Below are positions 4,024 to 57,508 of a stretch of 64,000 bases of DNA, piece after piece. Both the position numbers and the translations under genes were made by a program. The notes under the pieces are model-generated. The model was given only the letters and a program-made list of their open reading frames with translations, searched no databases and was not told where the DNA came from. The stretch lies in assembly GCA_963820485.1 (NCBI GenBank), contig CAWFZW010000004.1:61743-125742 (forward strand). The letters run 5' to 3'. Position 1 is the stretch's first letter, and every line of letters starts with the position of its first letter. The stretch comes from Candidatus Nealsonbacteria bacterium. GTDB lineage: Bacteria; Patescibacteriota; Minisyncoccia; Minisyncoccales; JBGOYX01.

Positions 4024-6175
4024 TTACCATTCTAAAGTTTTCGTAATTTTGAATTCTTTTCTTTCTTTAAATTCTTCTTGTTTCCCTTCATTCCATTGAT
4101 CACCGGCCTTAAATACCCCACTACTCTTGAATAAACTTCGCAAGGCTGTTTGATTGTGCATTCTCGGACAAAAAAGTGTTCTCCTTCCAGATAACCATGA
4201 CTGGGACAAATTGAAAAAGTCGGAGTTAAAGTGATATAAGGCAAATGGAAATTTTCAAAAACTTTTTTAATCAAATTTTTAACCGTCTGGATATCAGAAA
4301 TTCTTTCTCCCAAAAAGAGATGTAAAACTGTGCCGCCAGTATATTTACACTGAATTTCATCTTGAAGTTTTAAAGCCTCAAAAGCATCATCGGTGTAATT
4401 ACCGGCAATTGGCTGGAGTTTGTATAATAAGGAACTTTTTTTGTTCCAGCACGAAATAATGTCCGGATATTTTTCTTTATCTTTTTGAGCGAAACGATAA
4501 GCAGTAGATTCGGCTGGCGTTGCTTCTAAGTTATAAATATTGCCAGTTTCTTTTTGATATTCAATTAATTTTTCTCTCATAAAATTTAAAATTTCTAAAG
4601 CAAATCTTCTTCCTCTTTTTGAAGCGATATTTTCTCCCAATAAAATTCAAAAGGGCTTCGTTCATTCCTACCAAACCAATGGTTGAAAAATGATTGGCAT
4701 AATAACCTCCTCTTGTTTTTTTAATCCCTGCAAATAAAATTTTGAATAAGGATAAAGACCTTTTTCAATAAAATTTTCCAAAGTTTTTCTTTTGATCTCC
4801 AAACTCTCTTTTGCCAAATCCATCATTTTCCCAAGTCTTTCAAAAAATTCTTTTTTGGTTTTTGACAAATAGCCAATTCTGGGCAAGATTCATTGTTACA
4901 ACGCCAGAGACTGCCAGTTAAGCTGCCGCTCCAAACAATCCTCCGCCGCCTCGGTTATAAAGTTCGGTTAAATCTCAAACTGAAGCCTGCAGCACATTGA
5001 CCTTACATCATCTGGTTTCATTTCGGAATTAATGTAATTGGCGAAATAATTTGTGCCGTATTTTGCCGAGGCCTCAAAAATAAGATCAAAAGCCGGGTCA
5101 TCCCAAGGAAAATCTTTAGTGATATTAATGGTGGGAATGGGAAAATGAAAGGGCCTTCCTGATTTATCTCCTCCTACCATCGTTTCATAAAAAGCCTTAT
5201 TAAAGATTTTCATTTCTTCTTCAAATTCCCGTAAGTTTCATTCTGAGGTTTCCGCCAATAATCACAGGTTGTTTGGCGAAAACTGGAGAAGGTTTAAGGT
5301 CTAAAGTAATATTAGTAAATGGACATTGAAATCCGACCCGGGTAGGAACTGCCATATTAAATAAAAATTCCTGTATAGCTTGTTTTACTTGTTGATAATT
5401 TAAATTGTCATAACGAATGAAAGGAGCAACAAAGTGTCAAAATTTGAAAAAGCAACAGCGCCAGCCGTTTCGCCTTGAAGAGTATATAAGAAAATTTACT
5501 GCCTGGCCTAAAGATTACCCTGAAAATGTTTTGCGGGTTTTGATTCAATTTTTCCCGGAACTCCTCCAAAACCTTTAAGCAATAAATCATACAAATCCCA
5601 TCCGGCACAATAAGGACCGAGAGTATCTAAATTATGGATATGAAAATCTCCGGATTCATTTGCTTCTCTGATTTCTTTTGGATAAATTTTGTTAAGCCAA
5701 TATTTTTTAACAATGTAAGAAACTCCGTAATGATTTAATCCCTGCAAAGAAAAAGCCATGTTGGCATTTTCTTGAACTTCCCAGTCAAGTTTCTCCAAGT
5801 ATTGATCAATTTTTCAACTGCCTCTTCGGAAAACTGTCACTGCTTCCCTGATTCTTCTTCTTTGTTCTCTGTAAAGAATATAAGCTTTCGCAGTTTCAAC
5901 TAAGCCTTCCAAAATTAAAACTTCTTCTACGAGATCTTGAATCTGTTCAACATCAGGAATTTCTTCTTGTGTGCGACCAAAACGGCGATTTAAAATTTTA
6001 ACAATCGGCGATTTAAAATTTTAACAACTTTTTCAGAAATTCTTTTTGATTTTTTCCCATCGCCCTGGCCGGTAGCTGTTATGGCTTTAAAAATAGCGTT
6101 GGTAATTTTTTCTTGGTCGAAGTCAACAATAGTTCCGTCTCTTTTTTTAACTTTAGTAATTTTATTTTGAGCCAT
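4024..6175 (-). CDS. nrdD: anaerobic ribonucleoside-triphosphate reductase, interrupted by several frameshifts and a 23 nt tandem duplication
   Basis: Fragments 5990..6175 (ATP-cone, KKRDGTIVDFDQEKI), 5508..5798, 4968..5213, 4668..4886, 4032..4640 and 4024..4209. The C-terminal glycyl-radical region is RVVGYLRPV / WNEGKQEEFKERKEF. Confidence 0.85.
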
Positions 6176-6366
6176 GGCGATAAAAAACGCACCTTTTTTA
6201 TATCTTATAACAAACTGGCGATATTCCTTAAAGGTGCGGTATAAAAAAATCTCTTATAAAGAAGAATGTTATTTCATTTTAACTCAATAAAAAACTCCGT
6301 CAAATGGAGTCAAATTCTGTTAAAAATTGGAGTTATACACACCTTCAAAAACCCCGTTTAGCGAGG

Positions 6367-7297
6367 TCAAAAACCAGTAGCAATGACACTTACCTTTATT
6401 TCTCCTTCTTTCAAATTTTTATCTTTTAAGGCTCCAAAAATTACCTTAGCTTCTGGGTTAATTTCTTGGGTAATTAATTTAGCCACTTCGTCTATTTCAG
6501 AAAGGCTTAAGGTCGTCACCTCCTGAAATATTAAATAAAACTCCTTTTGCTCCTTTGCAAGATATATTAAGCAAGGGAGAATTAATTGCCCGCTTTGCTG
6601 CCTCAGTGGCTCTGTTTTCTCCACAAGCTGAACCTATTCCAAACAAAGCTGTGCCAGAATTTTTCATTATTGAATAAACATCAGCAAAATCAACATTTAT
6701 TATGCCAGGTAAAAAAATTAAATCAGTAATTCCTTGAACTGCTTGTCTTAAAATATCATCGCAAACCCAAAAAGCGGCAGAAACAGAAGTTTTAGGATCC
6801 AGATTTTCCAATAATTTATCATTTTCAATTGTAATCAAACTATCAACTTTTCCTTTTAGTAGTCTTTCAGTATTCTCAGCAATTTTCCTACGGAAAATTC
6901 CCTCAAAGGAAAAAGGTAGAGTAACTATTGCCACGGTCAAAGCTCCTGAATTTTTGGAAATCTCGGAAATAATTGGCGAAGCTCCGGAACCCGTACCTCC
7001 GCCCAAACCACAAGTAATAAAAACCATATCAGAATTTTTTAAAACTTCTTGAATTTCGTTTTTGCTTTCCTGGGCTGCCTTTTTTCCAATTTCAGGATTC
7101 ATACCGGTTCCTAAACCCTGAGTAATATTTTTCCCAATTCTTAATTTGAAATCAGCTTTAGTTTTCTTTAAATCCTGGTCATCGGTATTAATAGCAATCA
7201 ACTCAATTCCTTTAATTTTAGCTTTCCTCATTCTTAAAATGGCATTACATCCTGAACCTCCAACCCCTACTACTTTAATTTTGGTAATAGATTTCAT
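6367..7297 (-). CDS. ftsZ: cell division protein FtsZ (one frameshift near 6500-6620)
   Basis: Fragments 6497..7297 and 6367..6624. Motifs GVGGSGCNA and GLGGGTGSGASPI (tubulin signature). Confidence 0.9.
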
Positions 7298-10218: not shown

Positions 10219-11502
10219 TCATCTTTTTATTCTTTTTACCATTTCTCTTACCACCTTATCTAATTTTACTGTTTCTTGTTTGCCCTTTTCCATATCTCTA
10301 ATAATTATTGTTCCTTCCAAAGCCTCTTTCTGTCCTAAAATTAAAGTATATTTTACTTCGGCTTTGTCAGCCTTATTTAGTTGGGCTTTTAAAGAATCGC
10401 GGCCGAGAGATTCGGTAATTTGGATTTTTTCTTTTCTAAAATCTTCCATTAACCGCAAGCTCTTTTTTTTGGCTAAATCTCCTAGTTGAGCTAAAAAAAC
10501 CTTAGGCAGTGACGGTTGGGAAAGCCGAATCTTTTTTGTTTTCATTAAATTTATCAATCTTTCTACCCCGCAAGCTCCGCCACAAGCAGGAGTATCTTTT
10601 CCTCCCAAGAGCTTTACCAAGTGGTCATATCTCCCGCCACCTGGCAGAGATCCTTGGGCTTTTCCTTCCGGAGAATCTTCATAAATTTCAAAAACCGTCT
10701 TTGTATAATAATCCAATCCCCTGACCAAATAAGGATTTAAATGATAAGGCATTTCAATTTCATCTAAAAATTCCAAAACTGACTTAAAATGTTTGTGGCA
10801 TTCCTCGCAAAGATGGTCAATCATTTGGGGAGCAGCGGCTTTGACCGGCTGACACTTTTCATCTTTGCAATCTAAAATTCTCAAAGGATTTTCTCTTAAT
10901 CTCCGCCGGCAATCGGAGCATAAAGCCATTTCTCTTGATCTAAAATAACTTGCCAAAAGTTTTTTATAATAAGGACGACATTGTGAATCGCCAATACTAT
11001 TTACTTCAACAACTAAATTCTTAAATTTAAGCTCTTTTAAGATATTATAAAAAATCTGAATAATTTGGGCATCAATTACCGCATTTTCTTCTCCTAAAAC
11101 TTCAAAACCAAATTGCCAAAATTGACGATATCTGCCTGCTTGCGGGTGTTCATAACGAAAATAAGGTCCGAAATGCCAAAGTTTTACTGGTTGAGGAAGA
11201 TTTTGCATTCCGTGTTCAATATAGGCTCTAACCATTGATGCTGTTTGTTCCGGCCTCAAAGTTAAATAATCTCCTCCTTTAGTTCTGAAAGTAAACATTT
11301 CTTTTCCAACAATATCAGTAGACAATCCAATCCCTCTTGAAAAAAGTTCAGTTTGTTCTAAAATCGGCGTTTCAATTTTTTGAAATTGATAAAAATCAGC
11401 TATTTCTTGCACCACATCATAAACTTTCTGAAAATATCGTTGTTCTTCTGGCAATATATCGTGCATTCCGGTCGGCGATTGAAATTTTGGTTTTTTACTC
11501 AT
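10219..11502 (-). CDS. hisS: histidine--tRNA ligase
   Basis: Intact 427 aa ORF with class II HisRS motifs (RPEQTASMVR, FRYEHPQAGRYRQFWQFG, GGGRYD). Confidence 0.93.
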   Translation of the reverse strand: MSKKPKFQSPTGMHDILPEEQRYFQKVYDVVQEIADFYQFQKIETPILEQTELFSRGIGLSTDIVGKEMFTFRTKGGDYLTLRPEQTASMVRAYIEHGMQNLPQPVKLWHFGPYFRYEHPQAGRYRQFWQFGFEVLGEENAVIDAQIIQIFYNILKELKFKNLVVEVNSIGDSQCRPYYKKLLASYFRSREMALCSDCRRRLRENPLRILDCKDEKCQPVKAAAPQMIDHLCEECHKHFKSVLEFLDEIEMPYHLNPYLVRGLDYYTKTVFEIYEDSPEGKAQGSLPGGGRYDHLVKLLGGKDTPACGGACGVERLINLMKTKKIRLSQPSLPKVFLAQLGDLAKKKSLRLMEDFRKEKIQITESLGRDSLKAQLNKADKAEVKYTLILGQKEALEGTIIIRDMEKGKQETVKLDKVVREMVKRIKR

Positions 11503-11522
11503 AAAAAGACTGGTATATTAAG

Positions 11523-12071
11523 TTAAAAACCGCTGTAATTTGGAATTTCAATTTTAGCCAAAGCAGCAAAGGGCCATGCTCTTACAAATACTCTGCCAAT
11601 GATGTCTTCTCTGGGAACGGTTCCCCAGCGCCGAGAATCAGAGGAATGAAGACGATTGTCTCCTAAAACAAAATATTCGTTTTCGCCCAAAGTAATTTTT
11701 GTAAAACCAAAATCTGGTGTGAAAAAATTCGGTGATAAATAACTTGTTTCCTCTAAAGCTTTTCCGGCAACAAAAATCTTTCCATCTTTTATTTCCACCG
11801 TTTCACCGGGCAACCCGATTATTCTTTTTATGTAGCGCTGAGAAGTATCTTGAGGGTATTTAAAAACTACCACTTCTCCCCTTTGAGGGTTTGAAAATTT
11901 ATAACTAATCTCGTCAACAATTAAATAATCGCCGTTTTCAAAGGTTGGCTCCATAGATTGACCTTTTACTAAAAACGGCTGAAATAAAAAATACCTGATA
12001 GGCACAACTATCACCAAAGCAATAACAACTATCTTTAGCGTTTCAAAAAGAAAAGAAAGAAAGTTTTTCAT
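11523..12071 (-). CDS. lepB: signal peptidase I
   Basis: The track ORF extends to 12242, but ATG at 12071 (MKNFLSFLFE...) lies 9 nt after a TTGCCA-17-TATAAT promoter. Motifs GQSMEPT, RGEVVVF, YIKRIIGLPGE, GDNRLHSSDSR. Confidence 0.9.
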   Translation of the reverse strand: MKNFLSFLFETLKIVVIALVIVVPIRYFLFQPFLVKGQSMEPTFENGDYLIVDEISYKFSNPQRGEVVVFKYPQDTSQRYIKRIIGLPGETVEIKDGKIFVAGKALEETSYLSPNFFTPDFGFTKITLGENEYFVLGDNRLHSSDSRRWGTVPREDIIGRVFVRAWPFAALAKIEIPNYSGF

Positions 12072-12080
12072 ATTACCGTA

Positions 12081-12109
12081 ATTATAGCAGATTTCCTTTA
12101 ATTTGGCAA
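12081..12109 (-). promoter_or_regulatory. sigma70-type promoter of lepB (TTGCCA-17 nt-TATAAT), 9 nt from the ATG
   Basis: Hexamers read directly: attata at 12081-12086 and tggcaa at 12104-12109 on the plus strand. Confidence 0.6.
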
Positions 12110-12129
12110 TGGTTATGATAAAATCAGTT

Positions 12130-12180
12130 AATAAGAACCTCGCTTTCAGCGAGAACCTTGATTTTTTCACTTCGTTCAAA
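12130..12180 (+). promoter_or_regulatory. conserved AAGAACC-hairpin-GAGAACCTTGATT 5' leader motif, copy ii (upstream of pth)
   Basis: AATAAGAACCTCGCTTTCAGCGAGAACCTTGATTTTTTCACTTCGTTCAAA. Related copies at 7311-7345 (minus strand) and 58181-58285. Confidence 0.5.
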
Positions 12181-12183
12181 ATT

Positions 12184-12768
12184 ATGTTGCTTATCGTAGG
12201 ATTGGGTAACCCGGGAAATAAATATGAAAAAACCCGCCACAATATTGGCTAGAAAAGTTTTAATCAATTGGCAGAAAAGAGTTGGTTTTCCTGATTTTAA
12301 ATTTCAAAAAAAATTTAACGCCCTAATTTCAAAGGGAATTTTTAACAAAAATGAAACTGTTTTAGCTCTTCCCAAAACCTTTATGAATCAATCTGGAATA
12401 GTATTAAAAAAGTTAATTAGACTAATTAGCAATTAGACAATTACAATTTATTGTAATTCATGACGATATAGATTTTCCTTTAGGAAAAATCAGAATTGTT
12501 AAAAATCGGGGCTCTGCTGGCCACAAAGGAATAGAATCAATAATTAGAGAGTTAAAAACAAAAGATTTTATTAGATTCAGAATAGGAATTAAGCCAAAAA
12601 TGGAATCCGCCAGCTGGCGGATTAAAAATCCTGAAAAATTTGTTCTTCAAAAATTTAATAAAGAAGAAGAGAAAATTGTAAAAGAAGTAATAAAAAAAAC
12701 CGCTGAAGCGATTGAAATGATAATAAAAGAAGGAATAGAAAAAGCAATGAATACATATAATAAATAAA
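12184..12768 (+). CDS. pth: peptidyl-tRNA hydrolase (at least 2 frameshifts)
   Basis: ATG at 12184 gives [22 protein letters not shown]. The sequence continues in ORF 12224..12436 and then in a third frame ([28 protein letters not shown]). Confidence 0.85.
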
Positions 12769-13205
12769 AAGCCGTGGCCACGAGCAAGAAGCTTATTCTC
12801 GCTTCACTCAAACATAAAAAAGCCGATGGCTATGAATCGAACATCTTAACCTCGGCTATACGTCAGGAACCTGACGGCCTCTTCTATCGGGTTCTACCAA
12901 TACTATATCAGAAGCTCGTTCAAAACAGGTACAGAATCTCCTTGTAAATTACCTCCGCTTCTGTACTATAACCAACTGTTACCCAATCTGACCAAGATTT
13001 CCGATTTCGCCAGTCACATGAATAGTTACAGGATCACGAATTGACTTACATTTTCACATTCAACTGCCATGCCTTAGTGCCTCCTTTCTTTTTAATATAC
13101 TCCGAGAAGACTTTCCAAAGTAATCCCTTTGATCACTCGGGGCGATGCCATTAAAGATTTAGCTTCCTGGCTATCTGGATCTCTGACATTGCGCCTTTTT
13201 TTCTT

Positions 13206-13336
13206 CTATATTTTCTTTATCTTCTTGATCGCTGCTCCCAAAGGAATCAAGATAATCCAAGTAAGAATCATAAGATAATGAACCAAAAAATATAAAAAGC
13301 CAATTCTATCCAATTATTAAAAATCCCTGACATCAT
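13206..13336 (-). CDS. candidate small hydrophobic peptide (about 43 aa if one frameshift is bridged)
   Basis: Strong SD AAGGAGGT 6 nt before ATGATG at 13336. Translates MMSGIFNNWIELAFYIFWFIIL(stop/frameshift)ILTWIILIPLGAAIKKIKKI. Below the track cut-off. Confidence 0.3.
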
Positions 13337-13380
13337 TTAATACCTCCTTTTGAAATTGTAAGAGCAAAAATTTTTGCCCT

Positions 13381-13527
13381 CCAGTCTACCTGTGAGCGTT
13401 AGAGATATAAAACATAAGTTTTAATCCGTAACCTAAGGCCCTAAGTTTAAGGAGGGATTACTCAGGTTTTGTCCCCTTCACTTTTGAAAAGCAAAGGTGA
13501 AGGGCGAGCCACTCACAGGTAGGCTGG
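13381..13527 (-). ncRNA. unassigned structured leader element (multi-stem junction closed by a 16 bp helix)
   Basis: CCAGTCTACCTGTGAG (13381-13396) pairs with CTCACAGGTAGGCTGG (13512-13527). Internal hairpins CCCTTCAC/GTGAAGGG and TAATCC/GGATTA. Lies between a minus-strand TTGACA-17-TATAAT promoter and the SD of the small ORF. Strand is uncertain: one G-U pair favours plus, the context favours minus. Confidence 0.4.
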
Positions 13528-13564
13528 AAAGCAAAATCACTAAATTTTTAATTCCATTAAAATT

Positions 13565-13594
13565 TTGACAATCGGTTGAATAATGTATTATAAT
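13565..13594 (+). promoter_or_regulatory. promoter of mfd (TTGACA-18-TATAAT), 8 nt before the GTG start
   Basis: ttgaca at 13565-13570 and tataat at 13589-13594. Confidence 0.6.
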
Positions 13595-13615
13595 TTATTT
13601 TAGTGAATTTGTCAA
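13587..13615 (-). promoter_or_regulatory. divergent minus-strand promoter (TTGACA-17-TATAAT) overlapping the mfd -10
   Basis: Plus-strand attata at 13587-13592 and tgtcaa at 13610-13615. Confidence 0.5.
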
Positions 13616-15560
13616 GGGTTGATAAAGCTTTAATCGTCAGTATCACCCCCTACTTTTTGGAAAAGGGGAATTTTTGGTTTGAACAAAATATAAAACAAAT
13701 TTTAGAAGCAAAGAAAACACAATCTTTTTTTGAGGAAAATATTACTTTATATTTAGAAAAAAACCAAAATTATAATTTCTCTCAAATTTTAAGAAAATTG
13801 GATGAAATGGGTTATGAAAGGGTTTGGCAGGTTTCAGAACCCGGCGAATTTTCCCAAAGAGGCGGAATTGTTGATGTTTTCCCAATAAATCTAAATTATG
13901 CATTCCGTTTTGAATTTTTAGGAAATAAAATTGAAAAAATTGAGAATTGCCGATTAAGATTGAAAATGAAAAAGAATCAAAAGAAAGATTAAAAAGAAAA
14001 TTAAAATCCCAAAAATTATTTTCTGATTTAAAAGGATTAAAACCAGGCGATTATTTAGTTCATTTGGACCACGGAATCGGAATTTACAATCAACAGTTGA
14101 TAATTAGATAGTAAGCATATTATGTAATAGAATATGATCAGGGAGATAAATTTTATGTGCCGGTTGGACTTGGAAAGAAAATTATCAAGATATATTGGCT
14201 TTACCGAACCTAAAATTTCCCGACTTGGTTCTTCTCTCTGGCAAAAAGTAAAAAGAAAAATTAAAGAAGAAACTGAAAAATTCGCCAAAGAACTCTTGGA
14301 AATTTATGCCAAAAGAGAAATTGTCACTCGCCCTCCATATTCGAGGTGAAGATGAAATTGATTTTCAATTGGCTTCCAGTTTTAAATATGAAGAAACGCC
14401 GGACCAAGCTGAAGCGATTGAAGAAATTAAAAAAGATTTGGAAAAAGACATCCCAATGGACAGAATTGTTTGCGGCGATGTCGGTTTTGGAAAAACAGAA
14501 GTGGCATTAAGAGCAATGGTAAAAGTGGTAAAATCCGGTTTTCAAGTGGTAATGATTTGTCCGACAACATTTTAGCCAATCAGCATTTTCAAAATTTCAA
14601 AGAAAGATTGAAAAATCTGCCAATCAAAATTGCGATGCTCTCGCGCCTGCAATCAAAAAAAGAACAAAAAGAAATAATTGAAGGACTGAAAAACGGAAGA
14701 ATTGACATTGTTATCGGCACTCACCGATTACTTTCCCGTGATATAGAATTTAAAAATTTAGGACTTTTAATTATTGATGATGAACAAAGATTCGGGGTTA
14801 AACAGAAAGAAAAATTTAAAAAAATAAGAGCTTCTCTTGATGTTTTATCTCTTTCAGCCACCCCCATCCCCCGAACTTTATATATGGCTTTATCTTCTTT
14901 AAAAAATATCAGTTTAATTCAAACTCCGCCTTGGGCAGATTGCCGGTAAAAACTTTTATTTCGCCCTTTAAAGAACGAAGTTAATTAAAAAAGCGATTGA
15001 AAATGAAATTTCAAGAGATGGCCAGGTTTATTATCTGCATAATCGCGTTGAAACAATTGAAAAAGTTAAAGAATTTTTAGAAAAATTATTTCCGAAAGTT
15101 AAATTCGGTATTGCTCACGGAAGAATGAAAGAAAAAGAATTAGTAAAAGTAATGGAAGATTTCCAAAATAAAAAAATAGATGTTTTAATTGCCACAACAA
15201 TTATTGAAAATGGTTTGGATTTACCAAATGTTAATACTTTAATCGTAGCGACTGCACCCGTTTGGGTTTATCCAGGCATATCAAATCCGAGGAAGAATTG
15301 GCAGGTCCCATATTCAAGCTTTTGCTTATTTTTTATATCCCAGGCGATCTTTCAGAAAAAGCAAAAATGGATTAGATGCCTTAAAAGAAGCTGAAGAATT
15401 GGGTTCGGGCTACAAAATCGCCTTAAAAGATTTGGAAATTCGCGGAGCGGGAAATATTTTAGGCAGAGAACAATCAGGAAATATTAATAAAATAGGATTG
15501 AATTTATATTGCCAAATATTATCAGAAGCTATAGAAAAATTAAAAAAAGAGCAAGTTTAA
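13603..15560 (+). CDS. mfd: transcription-repair coupling factor (Mfd), compact form, many frameshifts
   Basis: Fragments 13603..13992, 14134..14349, 14306..14575, 14470..14949, 15125..15394 and unlisted pieces. Motifs [30 protein letters not shown] (Walker A), [10 protein letters not shown] (DEAD-like), SATPIPRTL, and C-terminal [16 protein letters not shown]. Confidence 0.85.
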
Positions 15561-15915: not shown

Positions 15916-16025
15916 TTTCTACTCCTTCTTTAGTTTTAGAGAGCAGTCCCTCCACTTACGACATAAAATATTATAATCTAATTGTCAATGATTTTTAAAT
16001 TTTAAAAAATGAGTAAAGTTATAAA

Positions 16026-16899
16026 ATGATTGAAGAAATAAAAACGATTTCCGTTAATGACGAAAATTATCCGAAATTTTTAAAAGAAATTAAAAATCCA
16101 CCGAAAGTTCTTTATTATAGAGGAGAATTAAAAAATAAAGAAAATTGTTTTGCAATTGTCGGAACGAGAAGATATTCTTCTTATGGCAAACAAGTGGCTT
16201 TGGAAATTACTGGAGATTTAGCTGAAGCGGGATTAACGATTGTTTCTGGTTTGGCGCCGGGAATTGATACTTTCGTCCACCAAGCTAGCCATAGAAAGAA
16301 ACGGAAGGACAATTGCTGTTTTAGGTACTGGTTTAGATGAAAAAAGTATTTATCCAAAAGAAAATATAAAATTAGCAAGAAAAATTATTGAAAAAGGCGG
16401 ATGTTTGATTTCTGAATATCCTGCAGGGACCCGAGGAACCCAATTTACTTTTCCTCAAAGAAACAGAATAGTTGCCGGGCTTTCTTTGGGAGTATTGGTT
16501 ATTGAAGCCAAAGAAAAATCTGGCGCTTTAATTACGGCTAATTGGGCGAAAAAATACGGAAGAAAAGTTTTTGCCGTTCCAGGACCCGTCCATTCTTCCA
16601 ATTCAAAAGGGCCGCATAAATTAATCAAAGAAGGGGCGAAATTAGTGGAAAATGCCAACGATATTTTATCAGAATTAGACCTGCCTGAAATAAAAAAACA
16701 ATTAGGGAAGATAAAAGGAGAAACTGAAGAAGAAAATTTAATTTTGAGCGCCTTAAAAGAAGAATCTTTATATATTGATAAAATTATTGAAAAAACTAAA
16801 TTAACTGCGGCTGCTGCCGCTAGCACTCTTGCTATTTTGGAAATAAAAGGTAAAGTAAGAAACTTAGGAGGAAACGTTTATGCAATTAGTCATCGTTGA
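16026..16899 (+). CDS. dprA: DNA processing protein DprA/Smf (frameshift near 16290)
   Basis: Fragments 16026..16340 and 16240..16899. Motifs VGTRRYSSYG, SGLAPGID, FPQRNRIVAGLS. Confidence 0.88.
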
Positions 16900-18958: not shown

Positions 18959-19042
18959 GCCCGGGTGGCGGAATTGGTTTACGCGTACGACTCAAAATCG
19001 TATGAGAGCAATCTCGTGTGGGTTCGAGTCCCACCCCGGGCA
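18959..19042 (+). tRNA. tRNA-Leu (anticodon CAA), CCA not encoded
   Basis: Acceptor GCCCGGG/CCCGGGC. Anticodon arm TACGA-CTCAAAA-TCGTA. Long variable arm. T-arm GTGGG-TTCGAGT-CCCAC. Discriminator A. Confidence 0.9.
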
Positions 19043-37013: not shown

Positions 37014-37899
37014 TTATTCTAAATTAAATAATTTTTTGGCATTTTGGGTGGTAATTTGAGATATTTTTTCAAAACTTTCTTCTTTTAATTCAGCAATCTT
37101 CTGGATTACGTGTTTAATATATAATGGCTCGTTGCGCCCATTTTCTTGTGGAGGTGTAAGATAAGGACAATCTGTTTCAATTAAAATTTTTTCCAAAGGT
37201 ATTTTTTTTATTATTTCATTTGAATTTAGTTTAAAAATTATTCCGTTAAATCCGAGATAAAATCCCATTTCTAAATATTCTTGTGCTTCCTTCAAAATGC
37301 CGACAAAACAGTGCACTACACCGCTGTAAATCTGGCCAATTAAATTCTTTTATCGCGCCAATTAAGTCGTTATGCGCAACTCTGCAATGAAAAATTACCG
37401 GTAAATCCAGTTCTTTCGCCAATTCTAATTGTTTTAAAAAAACTTCTTTTTGCTTTTCTTTAAATTGTTCCAGTTTAATCTTGGTTTTCGGCCGATAATA
37501 GTAATCCAAGCCGATTTCGCCTATTGCTACTACCCGCCTCATCGGCGGGTCGCCGATGAGGCGACTTGTTAATTCCCTGTATTTTTCGTAATCAAATTCT
37601 TCTTCTTTTGTTTTAAATTTTATTTCTTCAGTGCTTGCCCCGTGAATTCCCGAGGGTAACTCTGCGGGGTCTATTTTTGTTTTAAAAATTCCACTTGATA
37701 AATGAATCGGATGAAGACCAACGGCAGCATAAATTCCTTTCTCATATTTTTCTGCAATTTCCACCGCTCTTTTACTTGTTTCATAAGTTGAACCGACATT
37801 TATCATCCAAATATCATTATCCAAAGACCGACGAATCACTTCGTCGGCATTGTCTCTGAAGGCATTAAAATTAAGGTGTGCGTGAGTATCTATTATCAT
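37014..37899 (-). CDS. tatD: TatD-family metal-dependent hydrolase (frameshift near 37250-37320)
   Basis: MIIDTHAHLN, AIGEIGLDYY, and HCRVAH/HCF motifs across fragments 37246..37899 and 37014..37316. Confidence 0.88.
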
Positions 37900-37978
37900 A
37901 AAAGCGTTGAAACTTGCCCCGTAGGGAAAACGAAGTTTTCTCCTTTGGGGTTTAAGTGAGCATGAGTATCAATAAGCA

Positions 37979-38887
37979 TTATTTTTTAAGTATTTCTTAG
38001 ACTGCCAAAAAGCAATACCGACAAGTAGAATTGTAATTAATGTCGGAAGATATTCCGGGATAGCCGCTCCGAAACTTTTGACGATAATAAAAACTCCCAA
38101 AAGTCCGATTGAGGTCATTGCTCCGTTTTTTAAAAAGTTATATTGAGCACTTTTTCAATACTTTTAATAGTTAAATCCCTGACAATTAAAGCGCCGATTC
38201 CGTTTCCTATTAAGAATCAAAGGACTGAAGTGGTAAAGGCAAAAGCGCCCATCACTCCGTCAAAACTAAAAGAAGCATCTAAAACTTCAAATAAATAAAT
38301 TTTGAAAAATCACTAAATCTGTGATCCTGTCTTTTAATATTTCTTCTTGTTTTCGGCTTGTTCGCGAAATCCATACATAATAAAAAAAACAGCATTACCA
38401 ACAGCAGCAGAAAGCATCAAAAACGGAGAATGCCGGGCCAAATAAAGCAAGAGCAACTAAAATTATGGCAGCAAAGGCAAAAAACCAAACTCCATGATGG
38501 GGTTTTATAAATTTATCAATAACAAAAAGAGGATCTTTTTTCTTCCAAAAATAACCAGTGTAAATATAAAAGTAAAAGAAAAACGCCGGCTCCAATCAAA
38601 ATTATTCCTTTTCTTGCTTCCATAAGTTCAGCTATTTCCGGCTTTGAATGAAACATTGCTTCAAATGCGCCCAGAAATCCAATTTCGGGCACAGACAACC
38701 AAACAACCAATAAGGGCAAAAGTCCTCTCATAATAAAAACGGCGGATAAAATCCCCCAAAAAAGGAAAATTTTCCGCCACTTTCCGGCTCATTGTTTTTA
38801 AAACATAGCATTAACAATGGCATTATCAATGCTGTTCACCGCCTCAAAAACCATCAATCCCAAAATTATAATAATAGCCGTAAGCAT
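37979..38887 (-). CDS. DUF475/TerC-like integral membrane protein, many frameshifts
   Basis: Hand translation from ATG 38887 gives MLTAIIIILGLMVFEAVNSIDNAIVNA... and later LEVLDASFSFDGVMGAFAFT. Track fragments 38516..38731 and 38395..38595. Confidence 0.6.
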
Positions 38888-38912
38888 GTTTTAAATTTTC
38901 AGGAATAAAGGT

Positions 38913-40318
<1,406 letters not shown>

Positions 40319-56716: not shown

Positions 56717-57167
56717 ATGAAGGTATTAGCTGAGAATAAAAAGGCATATTTTAATTATGAAATCCTGGAGAAGTTTGAAGCAGGGATTTCTTTGATTGGA
56801 CAGGAAGTAAAATCAATTAAAACCAAAGGGGTAAATTTAGCCGGTTCTTATGTGGTTGTAAAAGATGAAGAGGTTTTTTGGATTGGGGCAAGAATTCCTC
56901 CTTATCAGCCAAAAAATGCGCCCCCTGATTATCAACCGGAGAGGTCGCGGAAACTTCTTTTGAGAAAATCAGAAATTAAATATTTAATCGGAAAATCCCA
57001 GCAAAAAGGCTTGACTTTGATACCTTTGAAAGGTGTATAATAAAAATGGTAAAATCAAATTTGAGTTTGGAATAGCAAAAGGAAAAAAGGAATTTAATAA
57101 AAAAGAGTTAATTAAAAAAAGGGAGACAGAAAGAGAAATTAAAAGAGAATTAAATTTACGGGGATGA
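56717..57167 (+). CDS. smpB: SsrA-binding protein SmpB (frameshift near 57035)
   Basis: ORF 56717..57040 (KAYFNYEILEKFEAGISLIGQEVKS, RSRKLLLRKSEI). The C-terminal tail KIKFEFGIAKGKKEFNKKE... is in another frame and stops at 57165-57167. Confidence 0.88.
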
Positions 57168-57507
57168 AAAAGAATCGATGAAAGATCTTTATAAAATATG
57201 CAGGCTGAGTTTACTAGAATCTCAAAAAACTTCTGGTAAAAAGAATAAATGCCAATTTATTCAAACAACCCGCTTTAGCTTACGTCTAAAGCCATCTAAT
57301 TTAGTGATTCTCGATAGCTAAAATTAGGTGTCATATTATCGAGATAGATGGTTCTTTTGTCTCGCGAACTTATCAAAGCAACAGAGACAATTAGTACTAG
57401 AGCTTTTTTCTGTTTCTAATCTAGTATTTCAAAGTTAAACAGAATAATCCTGTAGAATTATTTTAAAAAGACTTTCAGATGTGGGAGCATCACCCACCAT
57501 CTCCACC
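57160..57507 (+). ncRNA. ssrA: tmRNA (SsrA)
   Basis: 5' GGGGATG pairs with 3' CATCTCC, including the G3-U pair. T-arm GTGGG-AGCATCA-CCCAC. Discriminator A + CC. Candidate tag frame GCC AAT TTA TTC AAA CAA CCC GCT TTA GCT TAC GTC TAA (ANLFKQPALAYV) at about 57251-57289. Lies next to smpB. Confidence 0.85.
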
Positions 57508-57508
57508 G

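Follow-up and report, generated by a model that had tools for sequence, protein, structure and literature searches.

What does a genome encode in a stretch that separates two housekeeping genes and holds no gene of ordinary size? The question is raised by a block (12770-13615) between pth and mfd in the DNA analyzed here, a stretch of 64,000 nucleotides from a Candidatus Nealsonbacteria bacterium (hereafter, the window). The block is read on the minus strand, from mfd toward pth. The original prediction had described it as G+C-enriched and as lacking any long ORF. The enrichment is present but modest, at 37.8% as compared with 34.5% for the window, which corresponds to the 89th percentile of windows of the same size. 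ORFs of 60 aa or more are indeed absent from the block, the largest having 57 aa; however, this lack is in part due to 1-nt indels and stop codons that are specific to the window.

The quality of the sequence has to be considered here. Between 12250 and 16285, about 20 frameshifting 1-nt indels separate the window from three independent relatives, whose sequences are mutually consistent. They hit pth, the ORF next to the RNA described below (the cargo), mfd, and dprA, and none occurs in hisS-lepB; nrdD (4600-6500) and metG (37850-39750) are also split across several frames. Given that essential genes are among those broken, the indels point to patchy errors in the consensus sequence rather than to real decay. 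Exact-protein look-ups for HisS and the 685-aa protein gave no entry.

Public data divide the block into two parts. In public sediment and soil assemblies, 13367-13553 was matched at ~97% identity and pth and mfd at ~85%, whereas 12778-13366 was never found in those assemblies. Eighteen sediment, soil, and marsh runs contained 5-14% of the sampled words of the query, and the coverage by contigs from four of these 18 runs was restricted to the RNA, pth, and mfd. The element was also present on two metagenome contigs, lying directly against pth in one (locus L001) and being followed by a different, apparently broken ORF in the other (locus L002). The presence of the RNA, pth, and mfd in the public assemblies, the absence of 12778-13366, and the differing flanks in L001 and L002 indicate that the window carries a conserved element plus a variable cargo. 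In other words, the block is a composite, with an RNA core and then a variable cargo slot, and not a single unit. Its features are collected in Table 1.

Table 1. Features of the pth-mfd block in the window and contents of the cargo slot in related loci
Feature	Position or locus	Strand	Evidence or remarks
Conserved structured RNA, 171 nt	13370..13540	-	Covariance-model score 186 bits; covariation; G-U asymmetry
RNA promoter	13587..13615	-	TTGACA -35 13615-13610, 17-nt spacer, TATAAT -10 13592-13587; 12/12 match
mfd promoter, TTGACA-18-TATAAT	13565..13594	+	12/12 match; -10 at 13589-13594
Clade-specific 5' leader, ~40 nt, from inferred transcription start to P1	13541..13580	-	Alignment with relatives
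P1, 25 bp, one internal mismatch	13536-13511 with 13397-13372	-	UUCC/GGAG invariant near base
P2, GGC/GCC, encloses P3 and P4	13510-13508 with 13439-13437	-	Consensus structure
P3, optional variable hairpin	13503-13492 with 13486-13475	-	Consensus structure
P4, loop with 16S-tail-like sequence	13466-13460 with 13446-13440	-	Consensus structure
AUCCCUCCUU in P4 apical loop, anti-Shine-Dalgarno look-alike	13449..13458	-	28/29 members, covarying stems
P5, 14-bp hairpin	13432-13418 with 13413-13398	-	Consensus structure
Hairpin GAGGGCAAAAA/UUUUUGCUCUU	13360..13381	-	-9.8 kcal/mol, z = -2.5
Cargo gene 1, broken	13153..13349	-	SD AAGGAGGT; ATG 13336; homologue of intact 57-aa ORF of L040
Orphan segment, 296 nt, this window only	12857..13152	-	Contains SD AAAGGAGGC and 14-codon ORF
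Intrinsic terminator, hairpin 12857-12816 then U6	12810..12857	-	-16.5 kcal/mol, z = -3.5
Small single-pass membrane proteins	Window, L040, L019, L010		Cargo slot
Cys-rich proteins, 51-55 aa	L009, L017, L037		Cargo slot
Stand-alone GGDEF cyclases	L016, L004		Cargo slot
Zn-ribbon proteins	L003, L035		Cargo slot
NUDIX protein, without SD	L025		Cargo slot
Several proteins without family	Other loci		Cargo slot

The structured RNA and its relatives

The element had been predicted as a ~147-nt structure (13381-13527) closed by a 16-bp helix with at least three internal hairpins. The three hairpins are real, but the element is larger than was thought and its closing helix has 25 bp. The folding z-score of the element against shuffled sequences was -7.6. 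We scanned one genome per species with the intact Mfd of L001 and obtained 46 loci, nearly all of them from MAGs of Nealsonbacteria, Parcubacteria, or Paceibacteria. Of these, 36 Parcubacteria/Nealsonbacteria loci have upstream sequence. A covariance model built from ten sequences placed the RNA next to the 5' end of mfd and on the opposite strand in 26 of the 36; in the other 10, no RNA was found by the covariance-model search with filters off. These 26 genome loci, together with the window, L001, and L002, make up 29 members. They measure ~122-180 nt, apart from two variants of ~250-270 nt, and they always lie on the strand opposite to mfd, with scores of 27-186 bits as against 14-44 bits for the mirror strand. 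The RNA of the window is intact and has the highest score among the members (186 bits).

In the alignment of 26 sequences, 93% of the cells at paired positions can pair, as compared with 73% in shuffled alignments and 39-51% in controls with slid partners, although the pairing percentage is somewhat inflated because the alignment was fitted to the model. Double-sided changes were observed in 51 of the 61 pairs of this alignment, a number reached by 0 of 500 shuffles, and an independent MAFFT/RNAalifold analysis of ten sequences gave compensatory changes in 28 of 61 pairs. G-U and U-G cells outnumbered A-C and C-A cells by 168 to 31. This excess fixes the transcribed strand and excludes a palindrome that acts at the DNA level. 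Homologues and covariation, which the original prediction had named as the checks to be made, were therefore both found, and the segment at 13381-13527 belongs to a genuine conserved structured RNA that is encoded on the minus strand and has a promoter of its own.

It could be argued that the block is an ordinary protein-coding gene masked by sequencing errors, or an inverted repeat in the DNA such as a recombination site or the end of a mobile element. Patches of 1-nt indels do break pth, mfd, dprA, nrdD, and metG, and the cargo ORF is truly a broken gene. However, no reading frame is conserved across 13370-13540, P3 varies by indels and is missing in some members, and relatives with error-free short-read sequences are also ORF-less in the RNA region. 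The compensatory pair changes and the strong asymmetry of G-U over A-C speak against both the gene and the repeat. We also tried a frameshifted protein across the block by six-frame reading, by tblastx against 48 loci, and by Pfam searches with stitched frames, and rejected it, since only the first 217 nt of the cargo correspond, as a broken homologue, to the ORF of L040, and the RNA does not code for protein. For the RNA part, the coding or DNA-repeat reading is refuted by the covariation and the G-U asymmetry, and as an account of the locus we give it hardly any credence.

Taken together, these results indicate that 13370-13540 on the minus strand is, almost certainly, a member of a genuine new family of structured RNAs in Nealsonbacteria-like Parcubacteria. 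Pattern scans of viral contigs gave 0 matches to the RNA. Among RNA sequencing runs, none contained the window sequence, and coverage was zero in four metatranscriptomes taken from studies in which a relative occurs.

Promoters, helices, and the exposed loop

The original prediction had also placed a TTGACA-17-TATAAT promoter on the minus strand, overlapping the -10 box of mfd, and this was confirmed with a match at all 12 positions. The -10 boxes of the RNA and mfd promoters overlap through the palindrome ATTATAAT. The two promoters had been called face-to-face; since they fire apart, they are instead divergent, standing back-to-back on a common -10. The RNA promoter is of the sigma-70 consensus type; its -35 box is embedded in codons 3-5 of mfd, and TTGACA/TATAAT-like boxes occur 5' of the RNA in all 29 loci. 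The GTG start codon of mfd (13603) lies only 8 nt past the mfd -10 box, so that the mfd mRNA looks leaderless; at the position of the mfd start, the relatives read ATG GAT TTG TCA AG. In the leader of the RNA, an 11-nt insertion near 13550-13564 is not present in the relatives, and in other clades P1 starts 7-10 nt past the -10 box.

The consensus fold consists of the long closing helix P1 and a junction bearing two or three hairpins. The sequence of P1 is strongly conserved (UUCC/GGAG and CUGCGAG/CUCGCAG). P3 is the variable part: its identity to L001 and L040 is merely 34-56%, whereas the rest of the RNA matches L001, L002, and L040 at 96-99% identity, and mfd DNA is ~86-88% identical. P3 has no counterpart in four short members (L006, L007, L011, and L013), and in the shortest members the P2-P3 module has shrunk to a lone loop-bearing hairpin, so that the minimal members L021, L029, and L035 comprise P1, the loop hairpin, and P5. 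At the other extreme, L012 and L014 carry two additional hairpins. A search for covariation beyond the consensus helices found no further helix, pseudoknot, or tertiary helix.

A short GC/AT hairpin, GAGGGCAAAAATTTTTGCTCTT, had been noted downstream of the element and was recovered at 13381-13360. The GGAGGGCAAAA strand can enter either this hairpin or the basal 11 bp of P1, so that the two compete. The hairpin has no U-tail and is restricted to the window, L001, L002, L040, L004, and L037; its overlap with the 3' strand of P1 likewise occurs only in the clade of the window, L004, and L037.

In the loop of P4, the sequence AUCCCUCCUU is unpaired in the consensus structure and its columns are invariant, while the stems that present it covary (CUGAG/CUUAG, CCAG/CUGG, GGGC/GCCC, and others); L025 is the sole member without the loop. 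The 3' tail of bacterial 16S rRNA reads GAUCACCUCCUUA. The loop is identical to the tail AUCACCUCCUU, taken in its canonical bacterial form, less one A. Among the members, the loop reads (G/A/U)AUCCCUCCUU(A), and in L043 it reads GAUCACUCCUU. It differs from the tail in being a closed hairpin loop of ~13-15 nt, whereas the tail has a free 3' end. Because an invariant AUC precedes CCUCC, the resemblance to the 16S tail exceeds the core that pairs with SD sequences.

The cargo slot behind the RNA

An SD-led ORF follows the RNA on the same strand in 18 of the 29 loci, with its start codon 13-41 nt past the RNA 3' end and its SD just upstream of the start codon. The cargo consists of small proteins that are unrelated among loci, and no homologues were retrieved for the Cys-rich cargo protein. 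In nine loci (L001, L005, L006, L012, L021, L023, L029, L039, and L041), there is no downstream ORF, and only a few bases separate the 3' end of the RNA from the stop codon of the convergent pth gene; these loci nevertheless retain the RNA with compensatory changes. Given that the cargo is unrelated or missing across loci, the slot is variable and the RNA is maintained whether the slot is filled or empty. Among the loci that lack the RNA, a divergent gene lies next to mfd in L022, L024, L027, L028, L032, and L047, and a TTGACA box in the first mfd codons together with an SD-led ORF is evident in L024, L027, L032, and L047; in the remaining RNA-less loci, pth lies directly against mfd. Thus, cargo-like genes can stand straight behind the same promoter in RNA-less relatives, which suggests that the cargo has no need of the RNA.

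In the window, the SD AAGGAGGT (13349-13342) followed by ATGATG, which had been predicted to open a hydrophobic mini-ORF, was confirmed, and the ORF comprises 22 codons (13336-13268). The segment 13369-13153 shows 80% identity over 220 nt to L040, in which an intact 57-aa ORF (MILGIFNNWIELAF...) encodes a protein that is hydrophobic in its N-terminal half and ends in a charged tail. In the copy of the window, a Cys codon has been altered (TGT>TGA), and at least seven 1-nt indels are present; these changes account for the 22-codon mini-ORF.

Such a peptide might be the toxin of a type I toxin-antitoxin-like system in which the mRNA leader sequesters the SD of the toxin. Behind the RNA of both the window and L040 stands an ORF of the 57-aa type, with its hydrophobic N-terminal half and charged tail, and the leader carries an anti-SD-like loop. 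However, a small transmembrane ORF is found in only four of the 29 members, the RNA persists without any ORF, the copy of the ORF in the window is interrupted, and no antisense RNA gene is evident, a promoter scan having shown no conserved antisense promoter in the cargo. We therefore regard this possibility as very improbable.

The segment between this cargo and the terminator (12857-13152) had a homologue in none of the 48 loci and in no sequencing run. The second SD, AAAGGAGGC (13087-13079), and its 14-codon ORF (13070-13026) are there as predicted, and stitched frames of the segment gave no Pfam match. Indels may have disrupted a second small gene in this segment. The several hairpins reported from it do not exceed the level of chance (z ~0; z = -0.9 for CGTCAGG-TTC-CTGACG), and a second structured RNA was rejected with z ~0 on both strands. 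A minihelix with a T-loop-like sequence and a T-run had also been reported near the end of the block. Its hairpin and U-run exist at 12857-12810, but they are not tRNA-like and instead form the stem and loop of an intrinsic terminator; ARAGORN found no tRNA- or tmRNA-like element in 12500-13800. The terminator is homologous in L040 and L002 and sits next to the stop codon (12767) of the convergent pth gene.

Possible functions and comparison with known RNAs

The original prediction favored a riboswitch-like or attenuator leader for a small membrane peptide, or a type I toxin-like peptide. A small hydrophobic ORF with an SD does follow directly behind the RNA, but the link of the RNA with a membrane peptide is not conserved. 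One of the proposed checks was whether a small hydrophobic ORF always follows the element; we found one in only 4 of 29 members (window, L040, L019, and L010). The unrelated cargo and the nine ORF-less loci argue against a gene-specific riboswitch, an attenuator, and a type I toxin-antitoxin module alike.

A more general form of the leader would be a cis-acting riboswitch or thermosensor for any ORF that follows, with the anti-SD loop or the hairpin that competes with P1 as its expression platform. The presence of an SD-led ORF on the same strand within ~40 nt in 18 of the 29 members fits this, as does the complex and conserved fold, which is backed by covariation in the way that riboswitch-type aptamers are. 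In addition, the hairpin at 13381-13360 competes with the base of P1 in the clade of the window, and stand-alone GGDEF and NUDIX enzymes are found among the cargo. However, the functions of the cargo are unrelated rather than coherent, and in nine members the RNA is not followed by any ORF. Conservation is concentrated in the helices and a single loop and spares the cores of the junctions, and the competing hairpin is restricted to some clades and lacks a U-tail. Pairing between the loop and an SD, the other candidate platform, is possible but generic. Nor was any known class matched: as the original prediction had noted, the element corresponds to no known riboswitch. No Rfam family reached the gathering threshold anywhere in the window, and a search with E up to 10 of the block and two relatives gave only inconsistent chance matches (miRNA, IRES, and others). 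A cis-acting riboswitch or thermosensor thus seems unlikely.

The reading that we prefer, although tentatively, is that the RNA works by pairing of its anti-SD-like loop with SD sites, in cis on the cargo, in trans, or both. The transcript would start near 13580, take in both the RNA and the cargo, and end at the terminator (12857-12810). The exposed loop would then base-pair with Shine-Dalgarno sites and occlude them. Its first target would be the SD of the cargo ORF right behind P1, in cis; where there is no cargo, the targets would be the SDs of other mRNAs, in trans. P1, with its 25 bp, would close and stabilize the RNA, and is also a plausible substrate for RNase III. Two features found in SD-targeting sRNAs are present here, namely, a separate promoter and a C/U-rich loop that is left unpaired and complements SD sequences. 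For the 18 cargo ORFs, the predicted duplexes between the loop and the SD range from -6 to -15 kcal/mol, similar to those with the assumed canonical 16S tail. Most cargo SDs belong to the 16S type (GGAGGUGA) and show no tuning to the loop (GGAGGGAU). Given that every SD complements CCUCC by definition and that these SDs are not tuned, pairing in cis is possible but not specifically supported. Moreover, the loop and its presumed targets are both invariant, so that the interaction is inaccessible to covariation. The missing loop of L025 and the cargo-like genes behind the same promoter in RNA-less relatives also count against this reading.

Because the RNA persists without cargo, a function beyond control in cis is needed. 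This could be pairing with SDs in trans, titration of a protein by a mimic of the 16S tail, or competition of the promoter with that of mfd. These possibilities can be combined: the rigidly presented AUCCCUCCUU would act in trans as a mimic of the 16S tail, titrating SD-bearing mRNAs or an Era-type ribosome-assembly factor that binds the tail, and would thus provide these ultra-small, regulator-poor bacteria with a cell-wide brake on translation or on the maturation of ribosomes. The promoter would compete physically with that of mfd, and the 3' flank would dock newly acquired small genes, whose expression the RNA would control. We consider this combined scheme rather improbable.

We also considered a protein-binding or housekeeping RNP RNA, acting as a scaffold or a decoy, in which the cargo would merely hitch-hike on a strong promoter. 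The 3' tail of 16S rRNA is bound by SD sequences and by the KH domain of Era, and in one version the RNA would be a mimic of this tail that titrates an Era-type assembly GTPase, bS21, or the RNases of 3'-end maturation; in another, it would be a 6S-like global regulator. The presence of AUC together with CCUCC, a likeness to the 16S tail that goes past the SD core, is consistent with protein binding, and the strongly conserved helical sequence of P1 fits it equally well. The consensus promoter, the retention of the RNA in nine cargo-less loci, and its maintenance in very small genome records (517-640 kb) point the same way. However, searches with E up to 10 gave no match to 6S, SRP, RNase P, or any other Rfam family, the junction of several hairpins is not the central bubble of 6S RNA, and no gene for a partner protein is linked to the RNA. 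In addition, ten related loci have no RNA at the site, so that it is either dispensable or relocated in them. On balance, an RNA of this kind is somewhat unlikely, and we retain pairing with SD sites as the working model.

The family represents a candidate for RNA-based control of translation in bacteria that have genomes of ~0.5-0.6 Mb and few regulators. It is a concrete candidate in view of its unusually strong covariation, its consensus promoter, and the likeness of its loop to the sequence with which the ribosome docks on mRNA. The design is compact in two respects. First, divergent promoters share one -10 palindrome, and the -35 box of the RNA promoter lies within the first codons of a leaderless-looking mfd. 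Second, there is a fixed slot behind the RNA in which unrelated small genes come and go among species. A cis-acting RNA would be a portable module of translational control, and a trans-acting one would be a global regulator.

A limited full-text search of the literature gave no prior description of the family, and no native structured regulatory RNA of Patescibacteria/CPR turned up in a limited search. Known RNAs resemble it in part. SD-sequestering leaders, such as the 5' UTRs of type I toxin mRNAs (for example, Helicobacter aapA1) and the translational riboswitches preQ1-II and SAM-II, also have a CCUCC-type anti-SD element near the SD of a short ORF. However, the gene downstream of the present RNA is not conserved and is often missing, no antisense partner is evident, and the family shows neither conservation like that of a ligand pocket nor a match to these families. 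In E. coli, ygfA lies behind 6S RNA (ssrS) on the same transcript. The arrangement here is similar, with a presumably abundant and stable RNA, a long terminal helix, a strong promoter, and an unrelated ORF behind. It differs in that the RNA has a multi-hairpin junction without a central bubble and no match to RF00013, and the ORF behind it is variable rather than fixed. RoxS/RsaE and the cyanobacterial Yfr1, from bacteria in which they act independently of Hfq, block translation initiation with C/U-rich loops. Like the present RNA, they have a strong promoter of their own and present unpaired C/U-rich loop sequences that complement SD regions. The RNA of the window has no relation to them in sequence or in Rfam and greatly exceeds them in size, its closing helix having 25 bp and its junction several helices. 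They carry short CCC motifs, whereas its one loop reproduces 10-11 nt of the 16S tail; and, unlike them, it is in most cases joined to an ORF behind it. By analogy, therefore, the RNA would be closest to RoxS/RsaE and Yfr1 in its mode of working and, in topology, would resemble 6S RNA with its co-transcribed ORF, while being a member of neither group.

Variable hairpins of the RNA

We compared the conserved structured RNA divergent from mfd with its counterparts at the mfd loci of relatives (numbered L001, L002 and so on). The variable hairpin P3 (window 13475-13503) shares only 34-56% identity with L001 and L040, whereas the remaining RNA is 96-99% identical. Despite this sequence divergence, the hairpin form of P3 is always kept in the window, L001, L002 and L040, and the short members L006, L007, L011 and L013 lack P3 altogether. 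P3 may be free to drift, or else it may be a specificity element. In addition, L012 (3640-3910) and L014 (3658-3909) carry two additional hairpins between P5 (the 14-bp hairpin) and the 3' strand of the closing helix P1, giving a total RNA length of ~250-270 nt; they may have arisen, by their appearance, when part of the P5/P1 3' region was duplicated internally.

The pth-mfd slot and the divergent promoters

Six loci (L022, L024, L027, L028, L032 and L047) are without the RNA, yet have a divergent gene directly upstream of mfd, and L024, L027, L032 and L047 clearly show both an SD-led ORF and the promoter boxes within the first codons of mfd. The pth-mfd slot varies in content with or without the RNA. 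The slot gene of L016 (3137-3730) and L004 (3180-3752), from two species, encodes a stand-alone GGDEF diguanylate cyclase of ~190 aa, without a sensor domain and directly behind the RNA.

In the window (13587-13617), L024, L027, L032, L034 and L047, the mfd start codon lies 8-13 nt past its own -10 and has no SD; mfd appears to be leaderless at these loci. The first mfd codons (ATG GAT TTG TCA AG) are conserved and, on the opposite strand, encode the divergent promoter's -35 box, TTGACA. Presumably, RNA polymerase can occupy just one of the two divergent promoters at once.

Sequence quality and other RNAs in the window

The single-base indels in pth, mfd and the dprA-like gene are found in none of the relatives L001, L002 and L040, which are independent and mutually concordant; against the same relatives, the hisS-lepB stretch (window 10221-12131) has zero such indels. 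Because nrdD, metG and pth are all broken, the sequence suggests patches of poor consensus rather than true pseudogenes. At the gathering threshold, Rfam gave no match in the 64-kb window beyond one tmRNA and one tRNA.

Broken genes and Rfam matches in the window
Feature	Position	Strand	Remarks
nrdD (anaerobic ribonucleotide reductase, with ATP-cone)	4600-6500	minus	broken over three reading frames
pth	12138-12767		several frames, split by single-base indels
mfd	13603-15545		several frames, split by single-base indels
dprA-like gene, next after mfd	16006-16300		several frames, split by single-base indels
tRNA	18959-19042		Rfam
metG (methionyl-tRNA synthetase)	37850-39750	minus	broken over three reading frames
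tmRNA, full-length	57160-57508		Rfam, 81 bits

Mfd and its neighbor in L001

In L001, the gene after mfd encodes a 290-aa protein that is DprA-like in appearance, as judged by eye. Mfd itself has only 649 aa in the L001 clade (L001 1927-3876), far short of the usual length of this protein in bacteria, ~1,100-1,200 aa.
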